From Candidatus Parvarchaeum sp. (GTDB taxonomy: Archaea > Nanobdellota > Nanobdellia > Parvarchaeales > Parvarchaeaceae): 63,453 bases of DNA. The stretch lies in the NCBI GenBank assembly GCA_049965555.1, contig JBMFWF010000003.1, positions 1 to 63,453 on the forward strand. The letters are read 5' to 3'. The position numbers and the translations under genes were made by a program. The notes beneath the pieces were generated by a model. The model was not told the DNA's origin, ran no database searches, and saw nothing but the letters and a program-made list of their open reading frames with translations. This document shows positions 6,422 through 31,420 of the stretch, one piece after another (the stretch's first letter is position 1; every line of letters begins with the position of its first letter).

Positions 6422-7945
6422 ATGGAAACAGAAGGAACTGAGATAGTAGAAAATTATCAGGTAGTATCTGATGGTATATCTGCGGATGTTAAGATATTGA
6501 GAATACCCTCAAAGTTTACAATGAGCTACAAGATAACCACTCCAGTAATAGACCAAAGCATGAATGCAGTTCTTACTGAAATAAGGACACAGCTTATAAG
6601 GGAGGACCCGTCAAAGATACAGCAGCTTTCGCAGACTACTTCTGAAGCATTAAAAAGGGAGTTCCTCGAGATAGTCCAGAAAAAACTTCAGGAGATAATA
6701 CCCGGAATGCAGGAGAAATCTTACCTGGAACTGTCTGCTACTCTCTTGCATGAGATGTTCGGCCTTGGAATAATAGAAATACTTGATATGGACCCGAACC
6801 TTGAAGAAATAGTTATAAACGATTCAAAAACGCAGGTCATGGTTTACCACATTAAATACGGCTGGCTGGAAACAAATGTAAGGATAGAAACCGAATCTAA
6901 GATAGAGTCTTACGCACAGCAGATTGCAAGAAAGGTGGGAAGGCAGATTACAAACTTAAACCCATTGCTAGATGCACAGCTGCCAAACGGGGACAGGGTA
7001 AATGCTACTTTGTATCCTATATCCACGCACGGAAATACACTAGACATAAGGAAGTTCCGCGCAGAGCCATGGACAATAATAGATTTCCTCAAGAGAAAAA
7101 CGGTTTCACTAGAGCTGATTTCATTTGTATGGCAGGCAATGCAGTATGAGCTTTCTTTTCTTGTAACAGGAGGTACAGCAGCAGGTAAAACTTCAATGCT
7201 TAACGTTTTTCTTCCTTTTATTCCTCCGAACCAGAGGATAATAACAATAGAAGATACGAGCGAGCTTGTCCTTCCAAAATACATGCACTGGGTCCCTATG
7301 CTTACTAGGCAGCCTAACTCTGAAGGAAAGGGACAGGTAACAATGCTTGATCTTTTGCTTAACTCGCTTAGGATGAGGCCTGACCGTTTGGTAGTAGGTG
7401 AGATAAGAAAGAAGGAAGACGCACAGACTCTTTTCGAAGCGATGATGACTGGTCACTCAGTTTATGCAACTATGCACGCAGAGACCGCACAGCAGGTTGT
7501 AAAAAGGTTAATATCGGAACCGATAGATCTGCCGGAAATTGAAGTTTCAACGCTTGATCTTATAATAACTTCATTCAGGCAGAGAAGAACAGGCGTAAGA
7601 AGGGTATTAGAGCTCGCTGAGATAGTTGAACGACAGGTAAGCGGACAGATGGAGCTTAAGACCAACAACCTGTTTGAATGGAAGCCGAGAAATGACTCCA
7701 TAGAAAGGACAATAAATACTTCACAGAAGATCTCAACTAAGCTAGCGCTTTACTCAGGATTGACAAGCGAGGAGATGGCCGCGGATCTCAAGGAAAAAGA
7801 AGTAGTTTTGCAGTGGATGATTGAAAAAGGAATAAACAATGTAAATGTGATAGGTTTGGCAGCAAGCAATTACTACACAAACCATGACAAGTTAATGCAG
7901 TTAGTAAACGACAAAGGAGATCCTTCGGAATTGGAAACTCTGTGA
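6422..7945 (+). CDS. Type II/IV secretion, archaeal pilus assembly ATPase (TadA/FlaI-like)
   Basis: Walker A GGTAAGKT, Asp box TIEDT.EL, LRMRPDRLVVGE, His box TGH..YATMHA. Confidence 0.93.
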   Translation: METEGTEIVENYQVVSDGISADVKILRIPSKFTMSYKITTPVIDQSMNAVLTEIRTQLIREDPSKIQQLSQTTSEALKREFLEIVQKKLQEIIPGMQEKSYLELSATLLHEMFGLGIIEILDMDPNLEEIVINDSKTQVMVYHIKYGWLETNVRIETESKIESYAQQIARKVGRQITNLNPLLDAQLPNGDRVNATLYPISTHGNTLDIRKFRAEPWTIIDFLKRKTVSLELISFVWQAMQYELSFLVTGGTAAGKTSMLNVFLPFIPPNQRIITIEDTSELVLPKYMHWVPMLTRQPNSEGKGQVTMLDLLLNSLRMRPDRLVVGEIRKKEDAQTLFEAMMTGHSVYATMHAETAQQVVKRLISEPIDLPEIEVSTLDLIITSFRQRRTGVRRVLELAEIVERQVSGQMELKTNNLFEWKPRNDSIERTINTSQKISTKLALYSGLTSEEMAADLKEKEVVLQWMIEKGINNVNVIGLAASNYYTNHDKLMQLVNDKGDPSELETL

Positions 7946-7946
7946 G

Positions 7947-8843
7947 ATGGAAACGAAAATACCCGCTGTGATGATTTCCCCTGAAAAGGCCATTTTTTTC
8001 GGCAAGAAGGTAAAAAAATTTGCTCCGATGTTCAAAGGAATGTCTCCAACATTAAGGCAGGACCTTTTGCAGGCCTCGATGGACATAGACTACCTTGACT
8101 ATATAGCGGCAGGGATAATAGTCACCTTGGTTTTAGTAGGGTTGATGTTAGGTGTATCGGCGCTCATTCTTCTTATAGCCATAAAAAAAGACCTTCTTAC
8201 TATAAAGATAGAAGCAATACTGCCGATTCTAATTTTAGTAGTGCCTGGAATCTACTTCCTGTATTTCCTAAACTATCCAAAACTTCAGGCAGTAAAAAGG
8301 ACAAAACTTATAGAAGAGCAGGTTGTATTTGCAACTAGAGAGATAATGATAAAAGTAGGCTCCGGAGTACCTGTCTTCAATGCCCTACTAGATGTTGCAA
8401 ATGGAGATTACGGTGTTGTATCAGATGAATTCAAGCTTGCAATAGAAGAAATTGAATCAGGAGTTCCACAGGAAGAAGCTTTAGACCACCTAGCAAGAAG
8501 AGTTCCCTCCCAGTCTCTTAGAAGAACTATAGATATAATGTTGAATGCAATAAAATCGGGAAGTGATGTTGCAGGCACACTTACTCTTATAAATGACATG
8601 CTGATTAAAAAACAGCAGTCTGACATGAAGTCATATGCTGGTGAACTGACCCCCATGTCAATGGCTTATATGCTTATCTCAGTCGTGCTGCCAAGTTTGG
8701 GTATGTCTGTATTTGTAATTCTTGGTTCGTTAGCTCATTTTAACACAGTAGACATAATGTATATAATACCGCCTTTTCTTTTGATGTTCCAGATATTCTT
8801 CATGGGGATGGTAGGTAATAGGAGGCCTTCGATAGGAGTATGA
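7947..8843 (+). CDS. TadC/FlaJ-like pilus platform membrane protein (T2SS F family)
   Basis: TM pair, YGVVSDEF...E..SG...EEAL..LA.R, C-terminal TMs; follows the ATPase. Confidence 0.88.
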   Translation: METKIPAVMISPEKAIFFGKKVKKFAPMFKGMSPTLRQDLLQASMDIDYLDYIAAGIIVTLVLVGLMLGVSALILLIAIKKDLLTIKIEAILPILILVVPGIYFLYFLNYPKLQAVKRTKLIEEQVVFATREIMIKVGSGVPVFNALLDVANGDYGVVSDEFKLAIEEIESGVPQEEALDHLARRVPSQSLRRTIDIMLNAIKSGSDVAGTLTLINDMLIKKQQSDMKSYAGELTPMSMAYMLISVVLPSLGMSVFVILGSLAHFNTVDIMYIIPPFLLMFQIFFMGMVGNRRPSIGV

Positions 8844-9886
8844 AACAAAATTCAAATCATAAGGATATAAGAGCAAGCCTGGCCAATATGCTCCCGAAAA
8901 AGCTTACTGTATCATTAAAAGAGGAATTTATATATGCACAGATGGGTGGGGAAGACTTGGACCAGACAATAGGATCCGTTGTAATTCTTCTCATTGCAGG
9001 AGCAATTATAGGTGCTGTGCTTGTATTTCATTTTTTGCACTCCCCTCTTTACGCAATAGGAGCAGTATTTGGAATATTCTTTGGAGGGATCATTCTTGTC
9101 AGGTCCGTGCTTTCAATGCTTGCAGATTCCATTGCAGGTAAAATAGAGAAGGTTCTTCCTGATATGCTTCTATTGATGGCTGCAAACTTAAGGGCAGGTA
9201 TGATACCTGAAAATTCATTTATAGCATCCATGAAACCTGAATTTGGAAAGCTGAATTATCTCTTAAATAAAGCGGCAATAGAAACACAGGCAGGCAAAAA
9301 TTTCTCAGAAGCGTTGCTGGAGATGAATGACATGACAAACTCCGAATTCTTTAAGGACAGCGTAAGGATAATATCAGAAGGGATAAGGTCCGGAGCGGAA
9401 TTACACTTAATATTAGAGAACCTTGCCAGTAATCTTTTGCAGAATGAAAGCATAAGAAATGACATGAAGGCACAGGTAAAAAGCTATTCTCTTTTCATAT
9501 TCATAGCAGCTACTCTTGCCGCGCCGCTGCTCTATGGGGTATCCTCTTTCCTTATAGGAATACTTGACCAAGTAGGCGCAACAACAAACTCAGGAAATGC
9601 TGCTGCTAACCTTCCAAGTGGCACACTTGGGTTATTTTCAGGTTTTAGCCTCCCACATATTTCAGTGACTTTAGTTATAGCCATCGCTACAATAAACGTA
9701 ATTATAACAACTGCTTCAAGTGCTCTTTTAGGTGGTGTTTTAAACACAGGAAAAGCAAAAAACGGCCTTAAAAACATACCTGTATATGTATTGATAGGTT
9801 TAGGTATATTTTTCATGGTCAGAATAGGCGTATCGACATTATTTGCAAGCTCATCACTTACATCAGGAGTATCAAGTGGATTTTAA
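8840..9886 (+). CDS. Second TadB/TadC-like platform membrane protein
   Basis: IEKVLPD.L.LMA.NLRAG, EFG.L, SGAEL..IL; ATGA overlap with the preceding gene. Confidence 0.88.
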   Translation: MKQNSNHKDIRASLANMLPKKLTVSLKEEFIYAQMGGEDLDQTIGSVVILLIAGAIIGAVLVFHFLHSPLYAIGAVFGIFFGGIILVRSVLSMLADSIAGKIEKVLPDMLLLMAANLRAGMIPENSFIASMKPEFGKLNYLLNKAAIETQAGKNFSEALLEMNDMTNSEFFKDSVRIISEGIRSGAELHLILENLASNLLQNESIRNDMKAQVKSYSLFIFIAATLAAPLLYGVSSFLIGILDQVGATTNSGNAAANLPSGTLGLFSGFSLPHISVTLVIAIATINVIITTASSALLGGVLNTGKAKNGLKNIPVYVLIGLGIFFMVRIGVSTLFASSSLTSGVSSGF

Positions 9887-10040: not shown

Positions 10041-11210
10041 TTAAGGTATTACCCATTTGATATTATTTGATACTCCGTTACGCCCATTGCCACTATAGTC
10101 TAGTGTATTACCGTCCAATGGCCACCAAGCAATCAAATCTAGATTTTGTAAAGGCAAACTATTCCGTCCATTTAAAAATAATTTAGACACATTATTTGCC
10201 GTTATGGCCAAATTATAAAGCTGAACGTTTGATATAGAACCATTAAAATAAGAGATGGGTGGTAAATCGGGCCAATTTGCTCCATTTGAACTTCCAGCTC
10301 CAACAACAAAATAATAAGGAGAAAATGTACACACACTATCACTAATTTTATTTATTTCACTGCCATTTAAATATAAAACTTCAGTCTTGCCTGCAGCCGT
10401 TACATTCTGTGTTAAAACTGCAAACGTCCAAGCATTATTTGAAACTATTTTATTAGTCTGAAAAATAGGGCCGCAGTCTGTTCCCCCAAATAAAGAGTTA
10501 TTACTTCCCACGTAAAGAATATTCCACCAACCTCCAACGTAATTCGGCATAGGCCCTGACCCCAACCATATCATTGCGCCGTAACTTGATGTTTTAAACC
10601 ATAATGCTACAGAAAAATTTTCTGTATTATTTAAAATGGAATTTTCTGGCGTACTCATATAACTGTTAACTCCATTAAAACTGGCAACTAAATTAGATGA
10701 AGATGCTCCCGTTATTGTACCTGTTGTATTAGTAATTACATTACCCGCAGGAGTTGAATAACTATATTGAAGATTGGCAGACAGAGAATATTTTGTATTT
10801 GCAGATGTACATGTAATGGTAGGTATTATTATTGTTGCTGTTGTGCCAGGGTAAATCTTTATAGGTGTTAGATTGTACTCTTTTGTTAAAGCTGTTGTGC
10901 CGGTATTTGATGTTATATAAATTTTAGAGATTGTTGCCGAAGTTGCCGTGTTTGGCAAGCCCCCTCCTATTAATGTGACTAACAACCCTGATGGATTACA
11001 TATCACTGAAGAAACTGCAAAGGGTGAGAAACCGCTGCTTGTAAAAGTTACGCTTGAGCTTGGGTTGAAGATTCCCATGCTATATAATATAACTGCTACA
11101 ATTACTATAATCAGAATAGCCCAGCCGTAGGTCATCATGTACTCTAGAGCTGACTGAGATCTCTTGCTTTTTGTTAAAAGAGTCAAGTGCTTATTTGTGT
11201 GTGTGAACAT
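10041..11210 (-). CDS. Class III signal peptide (pilin-like) protein with C-terminal LamG/ConA-like domain; true start may be the out-of-frame ATG at 11271
   Basis: KRSQ/SALEYMMTYGW plus hydrophobic helix; LamG hallmarks FNGVNSY, FSVALWFK, LYLNG, FNGSISNVQLYN, WWPLDGN..DYSGNG. Confidence 0.88.
   Translation of the reverse strand: MFTHTNKHLTLLTKSKRSQSALEYMMTYGWAILIIVIVAVILYSMGIFNPSSSVTFTSSGFSPFAVSSVICNPSGLLVTLIGGGLPNTATSATISKIYITSNTGTTALTKEYNLTPIKIYPGTTATIIIPTITCTSANTKYSLSANLQYSYSTPAGNVITNTTGTITGASSSNLVASFNGVNSYMSTPENSILNNTENFSVALWFKTSSYGAMIWLGSGPMPNYVGGWWNILYVGSNNSLFGGTDCGPIFQTNKIVSNNAWTFAVLTQNVTAAGKTEVLYLNGSEINKISDSVCTFSPYYFVVGAGSSNGANWPDLPPISYFNGSISNVQLYNLAITANNVSKLFLNGRNSLPLQNLDLIAWWPLDGNTLDYSGNGRNGVSNNIKWVIP
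11062..11173. repeat. Dispersed repeat copy 1 (pilin N-terminal cassette)
   Basis: 104/112 nt identical to 31108-31219 by manual alignment; 60/61 over 11113-11173. Confidence 0.9.
11196..11205 (-). repeat. (CA)5 dinucleotide tract at the frameshift junction
   Basis: TGTGTGTGTG on the + strand; (CA)6 or (CA)3 would join ATG 11271 in frame to the adhesin. Confidence 0.75.
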
Positions 11211-11294
11211 ATATAATATGAGAATGCTCTGCCTTTTCCTCTTCTTTATTGTTTAAGGCTTTGGATTGCATATTATTTTATATAAAAACAAGGG

Positions 11295-11301
11295 ATATAA
11301 A
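11295..11301 (-). promoter_or_regulatory. TATA box for the adhesin gene
   Basis: GAAATA-TTTATAT on the - strand, 30 nt upstream of ATG 11271. Confidence 0.55.
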
Positions 11302-11313
11302 TATTTCTAATAG

Positions 11314-11862
11314 TCAATAGTAACTAAGCTTTTTATTCTTGTCTATGTATATAAATTTCAATCCCATTTTTCTAGCTTTTTCAAATGTGGCAGCTGCCTT
11401 TTCACTATTTTCATAGCCTAATATTATTATATTTTTTATGTCTTCCTCCTTTATGTCTTCATACATTTTTTCATGCTCGTATGCCTTTTCCTTTAAATAG
11501 ACTTTAGGGACTTTGCCCCTCAATTCAAGGTATATCTTAAGCCAGCCAGTCCAATGATCCGGCTTTCCGTCTTCATAACTGCCCAGCAACCTATTCTGCC
11601 TGTGTGCCTCTTCGTGTATAAGCAGGTTCTCAATGTCATCAAATTTGCTAGAGCACATAGAATCGTAAAGAAACCACTTATCAATTAGTATTTTATCGTT
11701 ATGCCGGTCATATTTACCTAAAAACATGCCGTTGGAATTTGCTATATAATATTTAGTTTTGTCAAATGCCGAAGGATAAGGCGAATTCTCTTTAAGCTTT
11801 GAAAGTAAACATTCCAGAACACTCCTCTGCTTTCTTATATCAATGAACTCCTCGTTTATCAT
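11314..11862 (-). CDS. SprT-like zinc metalloprotease (zincin)
   Basis: LIHEEAHRQ...PDHWTGW (HExxH plus downstream His). Confidence 0.65.
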   Translation of the reverse strand: MINEEFIDIRKQRSVLECLLSKLKENSPYPSAFDKTKYYIANSNGMFLGKYDRHNDKILIDKWFLYDSMCSSKFDDIENLLIHEEAHRQNRLLGSYEDGKPDHWTGWLKIYLELRGKVPKVYLKEKAYEHEKMYEDIKEEDIKNIIILGYENSEKAAATFEKARKMGLKFIYIDKNKKLSYY

Positions 11863-11974
11863 GATTAATAGAGATGGAAGGCCATTAATAAAGATTATTC
11901 AGTTGTTAAAGAAAGCACTAAAATGAACATGACTAATTTAAATGGCTCTACTTTTAATTGCTATTACGGAAAAA

Positions 11975-12748
11975 TCATATAAAAGGAACCAGCATGTAAA
12001 TGCCTACAACTATGATTATAATTGCGAATATTTTTCTAAGCAGCGACTTATTGATGGAGGTAGTAATCCTGGTTCCTAATATGCCGCCAAAAATTCCGCC
12101 CAGTACATACAATAATGCTATTGATATGATAAGATCACCTGCAAAGGCATACCTTATTGCGGTCACAATGCCAAATGTTCCCACAGCAAGAAGAGAAGTG
12201 CCTACTGCTTTGTTTATGCTTGTATCTGAGGAATATAAAATAGAAGGCACTATTAGAAATCCTCCCCCAATCCCAAAATATCCTGATGCAAAGCCGGCAA
12301 TTAAACTAAATATGCTAACCTTCTTTTTATTTACTCTTTGCTTTTTGGATTTTTTGTTTTGCGTACACTTTTTACATTTAGTAAGAAACATGTATAAGCC
12401 TATTGCAATTATCAAAACTGAAAAGATGCCTATTAAACTCTCTCCCGGGGTTATTAATCCCAGCGTTGTCCCTACTAATACCCCAACTACACCAACTATT
12501 GAGAATATCAAGCCCACATTTTTATCCACATTGTGTTTTCTGAAGTGGCCTATAAAATTTACATAAGCGTTTATTCCCACTGCCAATGCCGTCGTACCAA
12601 TAACAAGATGCGGTTTATCTATGCCTACAAAATAGAGCAGCAAAGGTATAGCAAGTATGGAACCTCCGCCTCCTATCAACCCTAATGAAAAGCCCACTAA
12701 AAACCCTGAAACAATGGAAAAAATATACTGAATCAATGTGATTATCAT
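11975..12748 (-). CDS. Sulfite exporter TauE/SafE (DUF81) permease
   Basis: Duplicated GLIGGGGSILAIP / GYFGIGGGFLIVP and AVGTSL motifs. Confidence 0.9.
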   Translation of the reverse strand: MIITLIQYIFSIVSGFLVGFSLGLIGGGGSILAIPLLLYFVGIDKPHLVIGTTALAVGINAYVNFIGHFRKHNVDKNVGLIFSIVGVVGVLVGTTLGLITPGESLIGIFSVLIIAIGLYMFLTKCKKCTQNKKSKKQRVNKKKVSIFSLIAGFASGYFGIGGGFLIVPSILYSSDTSINKAVGTSLLAVGTFGIVTAIRYAFAGDLIISIALLYVLGGIFGGILGTRITTSINKSLLRKIFAIIIIVVGIYMLVPFI

Positions 12749-31232: not shown

Positions 31233-31420
31233 GTCTAATTTATGTTTTTTTTTATTTAAATGTTTTGATTGTGGTACGATGTAAATAATAGATATAACTT
31301 ATTACAATCTTTTCAAAAATTATCTTTTAACCAATTGGAATATTTTTCAGGATTAATTGCGTTTAAAGTTATTGAAAGCTTTTGTTTACAGAAACTAAAT
31401 TTTAAAATTGTAAATTTTAA

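Follow-up and report, generated by a model that had tools for sequence, protein, structure and literature searches.

Why is the adhesin gene on the minus strand at positions 10041–11210 preceded by a promoter-proximal ATG whose own frame closes after 26 codons, just past a (CA)5 repeat? The window, i.e. the whole 63,453-nt stretch of DNA that was analysed, comes from a DPANN archaeon, and an initial annotation of it had proposed a slipped-strand ON/OFF switch at this repeat. The elements concerned are the following.

11295–11302, minus strand: TATA-like box ATTTATAT, its ATTTATA beginning 31 nt before ATG 11271; presumed promoter of a leaderless mRNA.
11279–11286, minus strand: second TATA-like motif, TTTATATA, 15 nt before ATG 11271.
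11191–11271, minus strand: promoter-proximal short ORF, 26 codons plus TAA; its homologues stay in frame, e.g. MQFNALSSERKEEAEHSLYVHTHTTKHLTLLAKSKRSQSALEY.
11209–11219, minus strand: TA-rich tract ATATTATATAT, immediately upstream of (CA)5; relatives have TATATATATT at this place.
11196–11205, minus strand: (CA)5 tract, the frameshift site; homologous tracts in relatives comprise 3–12 units.
11184–11186, minus strand: TTG in the pilin frame, 4 nt past the stop of the short ORF, aligned with the ATG of short-leader paralogues.
10041–11210, minus strand: ORF of the LamG pilin-like adhesin (P0001), 389 aa from the internal ATG 11210, intact past the shift.

Re-reading the sequence bears out the geometry first described for the locus. 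ATG 11271–11269 begins the frame MQSKALNNKEEEKAEHSHIIYVHTHK (predicted product AEHSHIIYVHTHK), and the TAA of this frame, at 11193–11191, falls just past the (CA)5 tract; the pilin-like ORF is in the +1 frame relative to it. The conserved GAGTACATGATGA core starts 127 nt downstream of ATG 11271. Because this distance is 1 modulo 3, one additional CA unit (+2 nt) or the loss of two (−4 nt) would join both frames, as had been claimed; this is deduced from frame arithmetic and the open frames on either side of the tract. Comparison with homologues identifies the short ORF as the N-terminal portion of the long charged leader typical of the family, truncated by the frameshift. The TA-rich tract makes up the other half of a compound (TA)n(CA)n microsatellite and is itself prone to indels. 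Two further codons in the pilin frame are of interest as starts. ATG 11210 lies 5 nt upstream of (CA)5; TTG 11186, a putative start codon, occupies the position of the ATG in paralogues with a short leader of 11 aa. Relatives have TTA at the latter position, TTG being restricted to the genome's own copies. The absence of an evident Shine–Dalgarno (SD) motif at ATG 11210 was noted at the outset, and indeed no GGAG/GGTG-like motif occurs in the 15 nt before it, nor an SD-like motif before TTG 11186; genome-wide, SD-like motifs peak at −12 to −9.

The repeat itself is commoner than chance predicts. (CA)5 appears in none of 100 dinucleotide-preserving shuffles of the window, and a first-order Markov model predicts 0.29 (CA)5 and 0.01 (CA)6 tracts for the 783,591-bp genome. 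The observed number is two, both in copies of the same leader (contigs C3 and C6), and no dinucleotide tract of more than five units exists anywhere in the 783,591 bp. Several attributes of a contingency locus are present: a perfect short repeat in the 5′ leader-coding region of a LamG pilin-like gene, its over-representation relative to base composition, and a unit number that sets the frame of an intact downstream ORF (389 codons here, with a shift of 1).

Upstream of 617 long ORFs, TATA-like motifs peak at −28, −29 and −30 (42, 25 and 33 ORFs), with 12 ORFs at −31 and a background of about 5. The box before ATG 11271, described initially as having the spacing typical of genes here, is thus slightly off the mode at 31 nt; an equivalent box is present at −30/−31 in 17 homologous modules. 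Use of the second TATA-like motif would yield a transcript from about 11256, with AUG 11210 as its first AUG. This motif recurs in the genome's own copies on C3, C6 and C9 and in genomes G005 and G012, and is absent from the G003 and G013 modules.

The encoded protein and its surroundings are those of a pilus system:

11082–11171, minus strand: class III (prepilin-like) signal, KSKRSQSALEYMMTYGW followed by a hydrophobic stretch.
10188–10673, minus strand: Laminin_G_3 (ConA-like lectin) domain, residues 180–341 (PF13385, E = 3.8e-11, 43.8 bits against a cut-off of 27.6).
6422–7945, plus strand: T2SSE-type ATPase (PF00437, E = 2.1e-36).
7947–8843 and 8840–9886, plus strand: two T2SSF-type platform proteins (PF00482, E = 5.2e-16 and 3.2e-11).

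Class III signals combine a short charged leader, a cleavage motif and about 20 hydrophobic residues. By inspection, the N-terminus KSKRSQSALEYMMTYGWAILIIVIVAVILY fits this pattern, with charged leader, cleavage motif and hydrophobic residues in place; no pilin N-terminal or class III family was matched in Pfam at E ≤ 10 (residues 1–80) or E ≤ 0.01 (whole protein), or in NCBIfam at E ≤ 1. The pilus-assembly genes (6422–9886) adjoin the adhesin gene, and a prepilin peptidase is encoded in the genome (Peptidase_A24 at C8:7177-7518, E = 5.4e-15). The pilin core is found at 15 places in this genome, and P0001 has 305 homologues at E ≤ 1e-30. Family-wide, many lectin-type heads are carried on one invariant pilin stem.

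Nine of the 15 core matches have a TATA-linked ATG, which is in frame in seven; the two out-of-frame cases are exactly the two (CA)5 modules. The second of these, on contig C6, also has the in-frame internal ATG, and lacks 3 nt of the TA-rich tract, giving an ATG-to-core distance of 124 nt against 127 nt. Since the C3 and C6 5′ modules are 96% identical, their shifts count as a single event. Within the 61 nt of upstream leader, the copies differ by one substitution and one 3-nt indel, with the tract perfect; over the 57 residues that they share, the proteins are 100% identical and the roughly 14 nucleotide differences are all synonymous. The assembly itself contains no unit-number heterogeneity, both own copies being in the same state. 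In P0003, which at 91% identity is the closest orthologue, the leader is of another kind and tract-free, so the gene can work without the tract.

Whether the upstream frame is coding at all can be judged from relatives. The comparison comprised 20 DNA-homologous modules from nine genomes; two modules, G002_C2 and G008_C8, were set aside as degenerate. Seventeen of the 20 possess an ATG with a TATA-like box 30–31 nt upstream. In 11 of these 17 the ATG reads in frame, without a stop, into the core, and in six it is out of frame. The in-frame modules display ten distinct ATG-to-core distances (69, 78, 81, 108, 117, 120, 123, 132, 138 and 153 nt), all of them multiples of 3. In-frame ATGs in 11 of 17 modules and leader lengths that change in threes show that the long leader is coding, and support the promoter-proximal ATG as the family's normal start; this gene and its C6 copy are therefore shifted at the repeat. 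Mixed frames, which the initial annotation had thought worth looking for among paralogues, are seen in these modules.

Frame follows tract length where the surroundings are constant. Between identical flanks, ATT(CA)nACTAAG, the frame is kept by the six modules with n = 4 and by G008_C10 with n = 10, and it is lost in those with n = 9, 9 and 12 (G013_C10, G013_C24 and G012_C10), the downstream ORF being intact in two of these three. The protein representatives form an in-frame series SHTT, SHTHTT, SHTHTHTT and SHTHTHTHTT, which suggests, on the assumption of the same codons, that n = 7 and n = 13 would be in frame as well. Among relatives, tracts range from 3 to 12 units in DNA, and up to about 13 judging from the proteins; (CA)5 is the shortest tract found out of frame. 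Pairwise alignments place the length changes at the tract: a 6-nt gap separates G012_C10 from G013_C10 (12 versus 9 units), and a 12-nt gap G008_C10 from G013_C4 (10 versus 4 units). Within one MAG, loci L181 (8 units, out of frame) and L202 (9 units, in frame) share 451 of 478 positions, and the one indel between them, of 2 nt, falls at the tract.

Protein clusters at 90% identity likewise contain both long-leader and shifted alleles. P0138 (…EETESSYIYSHTHTHTKTK) and P0049 (KKQRVPIYIHTHTHTKTK) are readings of one stretch of upstream DNA in two different frames, consistent with 10 as against 9 CA units; in a 90% cluster with P0126, this protein has the long leader and P0050, P0124 and P0125 begin at an internal Met; and P0129 and P0077 offer a like contrast between long leader and internal start. 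The 90% cluster of this gene has one member. Proteins that merely share a leader were considered as alleles and rejected, as no pair of 13 exceeds 75% identity in the mature part; such leaders are therefore shared by different bodies, and allelic evidence comes only from the 90% clusters. A protein search with the leader alone (P0069, residues 1–40) matched three of ten candidates and returned no predicted in-frame allele of the gene's own leader. A metagenome pattern scan for the leader plus a variable gap gave 68 loci, none of them with a pilin core downstream, and these were discarded as chance matches. One sequencing run, at a 0.06 share of sampled words, yielded contigs at 11105–11141, 11651–11880 and 12107–12298 only, with 85–95% likeness, which leaves 11176–11343, and so the tract, uncovered.

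Long CA tracts are concentrated in these leaders. In 33 genomes of the genus, CACACACACACA matches at seven places, all seven in pilin-gene leaders, 51–81 nt before the core and spread over at least four leader types. Two more 12-nt tracts, in the other phase, lie outside leaders, so that seven of nine AC/CA tracts of at least 12 nt are in pilin leaders, and the stronger statement, that pilin leaders account for all long CA tracts of the genus, was rejected. Reversed-pattern controls for a CA tract followed by the core gave no match in any of the 33 genomes. When leader-ORF tracts are tallied, those of at least five units are in frame in 9 and out of frame in 10 cases (n = 19), and those of 3–4 units in 10 and 4 cases (n = 14); the out-of-frame excess in longer tracts (10/19 versus 4/14) is weak, the copies being kin. 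The 12 Micrarchaeota-labelled loci in this tally count as 'in frame' if any upstream ATG, whatever its promoter spacing, has an open run into the core. The tally left out G047 (10 loci) and G042_C23, in which the tract precedes the ATG, and eight loci with bacterial titles were left out of the analysis.

Loss of frame is seldom accompanied by loss of the gene. Nine out-of-frame copies that were checked are open for every available codon past the core (27–451 codons); further open lengths are 471 codons in G012_C10, at least 281 in G013_C24 and 367 in this gene, the exception being G013_C10 with 47 codons. Out-of-frame cases with other reasons comprise a deletion (G013_C7 and G013_C38), a poly(A) run (G045_C24), and L203, with 12 units.

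Taken at the level of this locus, the reading that we favour, with guarded confidence, is an oipA-like slipped-strand frame switch, which would be new for archaea. (CA)5 would then belong to a compound (TA)n(CA)n microsatellite, prone to slippage, that recurs in the leaders of many pilin-like adhesin genes of a Parvarchaeum-like DPANN lineage. To judge from relatives, the normal route would start from a TATA box about 30 nt upstream, giving a leaderless mRNA with a 5′-terminal AUG (here 11271). This AUG would open a charged leader of 37–51 residues, followed by the prepilin signal KSKRSQ/SALEY, and the prepilin peptidase together with the neighbouring ATPase and platform proteins would process and assemble the pilin. 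Slipped-strand mispairing at replication would add or remove CA units, bringing the leader into or out of the pilin frame. At five units, both own copies belong to the out-of-frame class; translation from AUG 11271 would stop after 26 codons, so that no long-leader prepilin would be made. Access to the 389-codon ORF would be limited to AUG 11210 and UUG 11186, where ribosomes would either initiate internally or reinitiate once the short ORF has ended, and the state would consequently be off or low; AUG 11210 may sustain expression in the (CA)5 state. Gain of one CA unit or loss of two would produce the standard ON form. Of the ON/OFF switch as originally put forward, what stands is a conserved leader-coding tract that varies in length and sets the frame, with both states at 90% identity or more. 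An OFF state of this gene, slippage of a five-unit tract fast enough for phase variation as opposed to a fixed shift, and switching within the population at this locus are conjectural; the transcription start, the slippage rate, reversibility in the population and the level of expression from the internal starts are what we infer.

Phase variation through simple sequence repeats is a strategy that textbooks describe for host-adapted bacteria. In Neisseria, the multi-copy opa adhesin family has CTCTT repeats in the signal-peptide region, expression is combinatorial, and switching rates have been measured. The present family resembles it in having many paralogous adhesins, each with a leader repeat of its own and with differing frames within one genome; it differs in that the repeat is a dinucleotide in an archaeon rather than a pentamer in a bacterium. 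Helicobacter pylori is not known to possess canonical mismatch repair; in the present genome, which is 92% complete, MutS_V and NucS gave no match. H. pylori oipA has 5–9 CT units in the signal-peptide region, with 6 on and 5, 7 and 8 off (PMC6327388). The gene oipA (hopH) and related outer-membrane adhesin genes share with the archaeal modules a dinucleotide repeat in the 5′ leader- or signal-coding part, and in both the tracts are short (5–9 units in oipA, 3–12 here) and their unit number sets the frame. The differences are that the present organism is an archaeon, a DPANN symbiont, in which switching is putative; that the mRNA is presumably leaderless, with the repeat 65 nt into the transcript; that the signal is of the prepilin (class III) type instead of a Sec signal; and that initiation at an in-frame internal ATG just ahead of the tract may yield an additional product with a short leader.

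The same internal ATG is the basis of the best of the competing explanations, possible though on balance unlikely: the shift may have become fixed in the lineage and reached at least two paralogues through duplication or gene conversion, with AUG 11210 or UUG 11186 as a constitutive start and no meaningful switching. AUG 11210 would then give a 19-residue leader, MFTHTNKHLTLLTKSKRSQ, and the old start would persist at the head of an upstream ORF of 26 codons. In favour of this, (CA)5 and the in-frame ATG occur together in both own copies, and the out-of-frame modules G009_C28 and G012_C12 likewise have a pilin-frame ATG 5 nt upstream of their tract, at a place where most in-frame modules carry ATT; this looks like compensation following a fixed shift. 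In G013_C7 and G013_C38, a short upstream ORF stops 2 nt ahead of an in-frame ATG, and the confinement of TTG to the own copies, with TTA in relatives, fits as well, as does the shortness of (CA)5. A leader of about 19 residues is within the family's range of 4–58 residues, a range which implies that short leaders are functional. CA repeats just 3′ of a start codon boost translation in Escherichia coli, on leaderless and leadered messages alike (Martin-Farmer and Janssen 1999, as cited in PMC9031893), and termination–reinitiation coupling is known in Haloferax (Huber 2019, as cited in PMC7531240). Set against this are the lack of an SD-like motif at ATG 11210 and TTG 11186, though the genome's internal genes use such motifs, and the expectation that a ribosome from the 5′-terminal AUG would run over AUG 11210. 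Furthermore, the tract is still perfect and the upstream leader codons are conserved between the copies, and relatives have the same module in both states.

It is improbable that the tract persists chiefly because it serves as an unstructured, CA-rich enhancer of translation or as a promoter spacer, with mutability and out-of-frame copies as non-adaptive side effects. The E. coli enhancer, as cited in PMC9031893 and PMC7531240, resembles the present case in that a CA multimer lies just 3′ of the start, (CA)5 being 5 nt after AUG 11210; it is a synthetic or reporter finding without frame switching, however, and the long-leader tract here is far from the 5′ AUG. Micrarchaeota-labelled loci with a tract starting 9–20 nt past an ATG would suit an enhancer, and in G047 (one Parvarchaeota MAG with 10 loci, nine of them re-seen) and G042_C23 the tract lies between a TATA-like run and the ATG. 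In the long-leader modules, in contrast, the tract is 56–100 nt past the 5′ AUG, and an enhancer would leave unexplained that roughly one in two of the longer tracts is out of frame although the ORF is intact; such a role is, moreover, compatible with switching.

A decaying pseudogene in a large, redundant adhesin family is very improbable. The family has 17 matches in the genome, some of which are clearly broken (C11:250-390, with stops, and two C1 copies with internal stops), and the G002_C2 and G008_C8 modules of relatives are degenerate; this gene, however, keeps 389 open codons at about 36% G+C, a LamG domain above the Pfam cut-off and only synonymous differences from the C6 copy, and other out-of-frame modules are intact too. 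Least credible of all is that the shift is an artefact of assembly or sequencing, or that a programmed frameshift takes place at the tract during translation or transcription: although the assembly is in 28 contigs that break at modules (C6:1, C9:1 and the end of C12) and the short ORF terminates in AAA-TAA-G, the same five units on two contigs with different flanks make the assembly error once suggested unlikely, re-pairing from AAA to AAU is poor, and 11 of the 17 modules that could be scored need no shift to be in frame, so that there is no conserved recoding site and no conserved out-of-frame arrangement.

If the slipped-strand switch is taken beyond this gene, acidophilic DPANN archaea (Parvarchaeum-like organisms and Micrarchaeota-labelled MAGs) may possess a genome-wide contingency system, with dozens of pilin-adhesins carrying (TA)n(CA)n in the leader or promoter spacer and slippage in the absence of mismatch repair; we regard this extension as tentative, somewhat short of probable. 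Each cell lineage would then show a different random subset of adhesins, amounting to bet-hedging on host attachment or virus avoidance, and an internal AUG before the tract would let some switches toggle between a long and a short leader rather than plainly on and off. DPANN archaea live attached to other archaea, and a repeat switch on lectin-headed pilins would provide a concrete, testable handle on the way they choose and vary their host contacts. In the openly accessible literature searched on simple-repeat phase variation in archaea and DPANN, on dinucleotide repeats in archaeal pilins and on archaeal contingency loci, no description was found. A 2025 review (PMC11868660) leaves the archaeal distribution of simple-sequence phase variation to future work, and in a 2025 preprint the sole archaeal source cited is a 1987 hybridisation paper; the system would, as far as the literature searched goes, be the first of its kind described in Archaea. 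Gene callers start these genes at an internal Met or GTG, or inside the signal peptide, which hides the leader and with it the putative switch.

The 5′ region of the gene for P0001, a LamG pilin-like adhesin, has the following features (the domain of the product is given last):

ATG 11271 to TAA 11193-11191, minus strand: short ORF, reading MQSKALNNKEEEKAEHSHIIYVHTHK
11205-11196, minus strand: (CA)5 tract, from the sequence
from ATG 11210, minus strand: P0001 ORF, 389 residues, in the +1 frame relative to the short ORF
P0001 residues 180-341: Laminin_G_3 domain (E 3.8e-11)

These frames and coordinates agree with the initial annotation, in which the frame of ATG 11271 stopped just after the repeat. 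The TATA box that it placed about 30 nt before this ATG, at a spacing common in the genome, was measured at −31, and ATG 11210, described there as having no obvious SD, has neither an SD nor a box at leaderless distance. P0001 opens with a prepilin-like signal, MFTHTNKHLTLLTKSKRSQSALEYMMTYGWAILIIV; its N-terminus matches no curated HMMs. Downstream of the core, the conserved part of this signal, the pilin frame is open for 367 codons. Genes for a T2SSE ATPase and two T2SSF proteins adjoin the pilin gene (6422-9886), and a Peptidase_A24 gene is encoded in the same genome.

This genome, of which the window is contig C3, comprises 783,591 bp in 28 contigs and is 92% complete. The names attached to homologous proteins and loci are Candidatus Parvarchaeum, Parvarchaeota and 'Nanoarchaeota'. 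Among its 617 long ORFs, TATA-like motifs peak 28-30 nt before the ATG (42, 25 and 33 ORFs), with 12 at −31, and SD-like motifs peak at −12 to −9; the genome thus combines leaderless first genes with SD-led internal ones.

A DNA search of 33 genus genomes with positions 11130-11320 found the whole module (promoter, leader and prepilin signal) at 69-84% identity in eight other genomes. Twenty modules were aligned, and the 17 with an ATG and a TATA-like box 30-31 nt upstream form the scorable set. The long charged leader is predicted to be translated, with the promoter-proximal ATG as the family's start, because in 11 of the 17 this ATG shares the frame of the pilin core with no stop between them, the in-frame ATG-to-core distances (10 values, 69 to 153 nt) are all multiples of three, and gene callers call long leaders in many metagenomes. 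An in-frame example from the closest relative, with (CA)6, reads MQFNALSSERKEEAEHSLYVHTHTTKHLTLLAKSKRSQSALEY. The six out-of-frame modules are two own copies, G012_C12, G013_C7, G013_C38 and G045_C24. In the own genome, nine pilin genes have a TATA-linked ATG; it is in frame in seven of them, and only the two (CA)5 modules depart from this.

The best reading, which we hold to be somewhat better than an even chance, is that the leader of this multi-copy adhesin family contains a slipped-strand frame switch; the P0001 gene falls into the out-of-frame class. Between identical flanks, ATT(CA)nACTAAG, the leader is in frame at n=4 (six modules) and n=10, and out of frame at n=9, 9 and 12. On the assumption of unchanged codon use, protein representatives add in-frame steps matching 7, 10 and 13 units. 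Tracts of at least five units divide into 9 in and 10 out (19 tracts), and those of 3-4 units into 10 in and 4 out (14 tracts); the copies are kin, hence no statistical test was applied. In nine out-of-frame copies the downstream frame is open through all 27-451 available codons, and further copies are open for 471 and at least 281 codons; the exception, G013_C10, stops after 47. The sole gap between loci L181 and L202 over 478 aligned nt is a 2-nt indel at the tract, and two other close pairs have gaps of 6 and 12 nt there. In the 90%-identity clusters, P0138 and P0049 represent two reading frames of the same upstream DNA, as gain or loss of one CA unit would give; P0126 and P0129 have a long leader, and their cluster mates begin at an internal Met or in the other frame. 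CA tracts in pilin leaders of related genomes occur in mixed frames, a point that the initial annotation had proposed to check. A search of the 92%-complete own genome for MutS_V (PF00488) and NucS (PF01939) gave no match.

The main rival, to which we give clearly less weight and which we consider rather unlikely, is a fixed shift, with the P0001 gene read from AUG 11210 or UUG 11186. Two other shifted modules likewise have an in-frame ATG before the tract, the TTG is found in the own genome alone, and (CA)5 is short, all of which would suit a fixed shift; however, neither start has an SD, and the tract is kept perfect. An assembly error, an alternative raised initially, is contradicted by the C3 and C6 copies, which have distinct sequences and the same (CA)5: their modules are separated by 4 changes in about 170 nt and the pilin codons that follow by about 14 synonymous site differences, which argues for one event rather than two.

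(CA)5 appeared in 0 of 100 shuffles of the window, and a Markov model predicts 0.29 per genome; exactly two are observed, both in one promoter-leader module type (C3, and C6:157-166 at a contig end). A third promoter copy terminates contig C9. The assembly breaks within promoter-leader-signal modules at C6:1, C9:1 and the C12 end; a 57-nt overlap with 3 mismatches links the C6 start to the C12 end, which implies at least three module copies and one gene split across two contigs.

Across the 33 genus genomes, CACACACACACA occurs at seven places, all of them pilin leaders, which belong to at least four types, with 6, 6, 9, 9, 10, 12 and 12 units and TATATATATT before the tract. Two more 12-nt tracts, in AC phase, lie in G014 immediately upstream of an unrelated gene that is duplicated there; the pilin-leader share is therefore 7/9. 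These (AC)6 tracts (C2:6462-6473, L214; C20:44947-44958, L215) end 2 nt before the start codon, with the gene on the other strand; L214 has an inverted (GT)5 about 150 nt away, and the site is possibly a mobile element end. The pattern 'CA tract, 35-96 nt, pilin core' matches 12 of the 33 genomes; the reversed controls give no hits.

Scanning 185,579 species genomes gave 40 loci, of which the eight with bacterial titles were left out. The 32 archaeal loci comprise 11 already-counted modules, nine from one Parvarchaeota MAG, where the tract precedes the ATG, and 12 from MAGs labelled Micrarchaeota. In the latter, where any upstream ATG open to the core was counted, the frame is in at 6, 6, 9, 9, 9 and 4 units and out at 7, 8, 8, 10, 12 and 4. 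At these loci (L177, L180, L181, L189-L191, L197, L199, L202, L203, L209, L211), which are SQSAMEYLMT-type pilin genes, (CA)4-12 follows an ATG by a few codons. In the Parvarchaeota MAG, G047, 10 pilin genes (L164-L173) have (CA)3-5 before the ATG, with an AT-rich TATA-like run on one side and TTTTATATG on the other; the tract here is part of the promoter spacer and not of a coding leader. At G042_C23 (L162) the tract also precedes the ATG.

Promoter-leader cassettes appear, from sequence comparison, to be swapped between adhesin genes, since the closest orthologue of P0001 (P0003, 91% identical) has another leader altogether, MAFKSILINCREKYWRPTFLSKSKRSQ. In the clusters of P0077, P0067, P0065 and P0012, genes whose mature parts share at least 90% identity likewise have unrelated leaders.

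The nearest multi-copy analogue is the opa genes of Neisseria. The proposed mechanism is of a known kind; its novelty lies in its occurrence in another domain of life, in a leaderless context and in a prepilin leader. Of the known systems it is closest to H. pylori oipA, which has a dinucleotide repeat of 5-9 CT units in the signal-peptide region, with 6 on and 5, 7 and 8 off (PMC6327388). The literature searched held no account of simple-repeat phase variation for genes of archaea, and archaeal distribution is named as future work in a 2025 review (PMC11868660).

Other leaders vary differently. G045:C24 (L058) has CAAAAAAACAAC in place of the CA tract and its leader is out of frame (MLFKALNNKEEEKAERYYVYQKNN, then a stop), unlike protein representatives with ...YYVYQKTTKHL in frame; it looks like a homopolymer version of the CA-tract switch. 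In G013:C7 and G013:C38 (L050, L051), a 12-codon upstream ORF, MPFKALNNKERA, has its stop 2 nt upstream of an in-frame ATG (MHTTNITNHL...), whose Met is the start of four protein representatives; this arrangement suggests termination-reinitiation. A second promoter class (window 31245-31253, minus strand; also C4, C5, C7 and C11) precedes MHKLSKSRRSQ-type pilin genes. Its TATA-like ATTTAAA is separated from the ATG by a poly(A) run that is 7, 8, 8 or 9 long, a possible spacer-length switch for a leaderless start; the box-to-ATG distance is 27 to 29 nt across paralogues.
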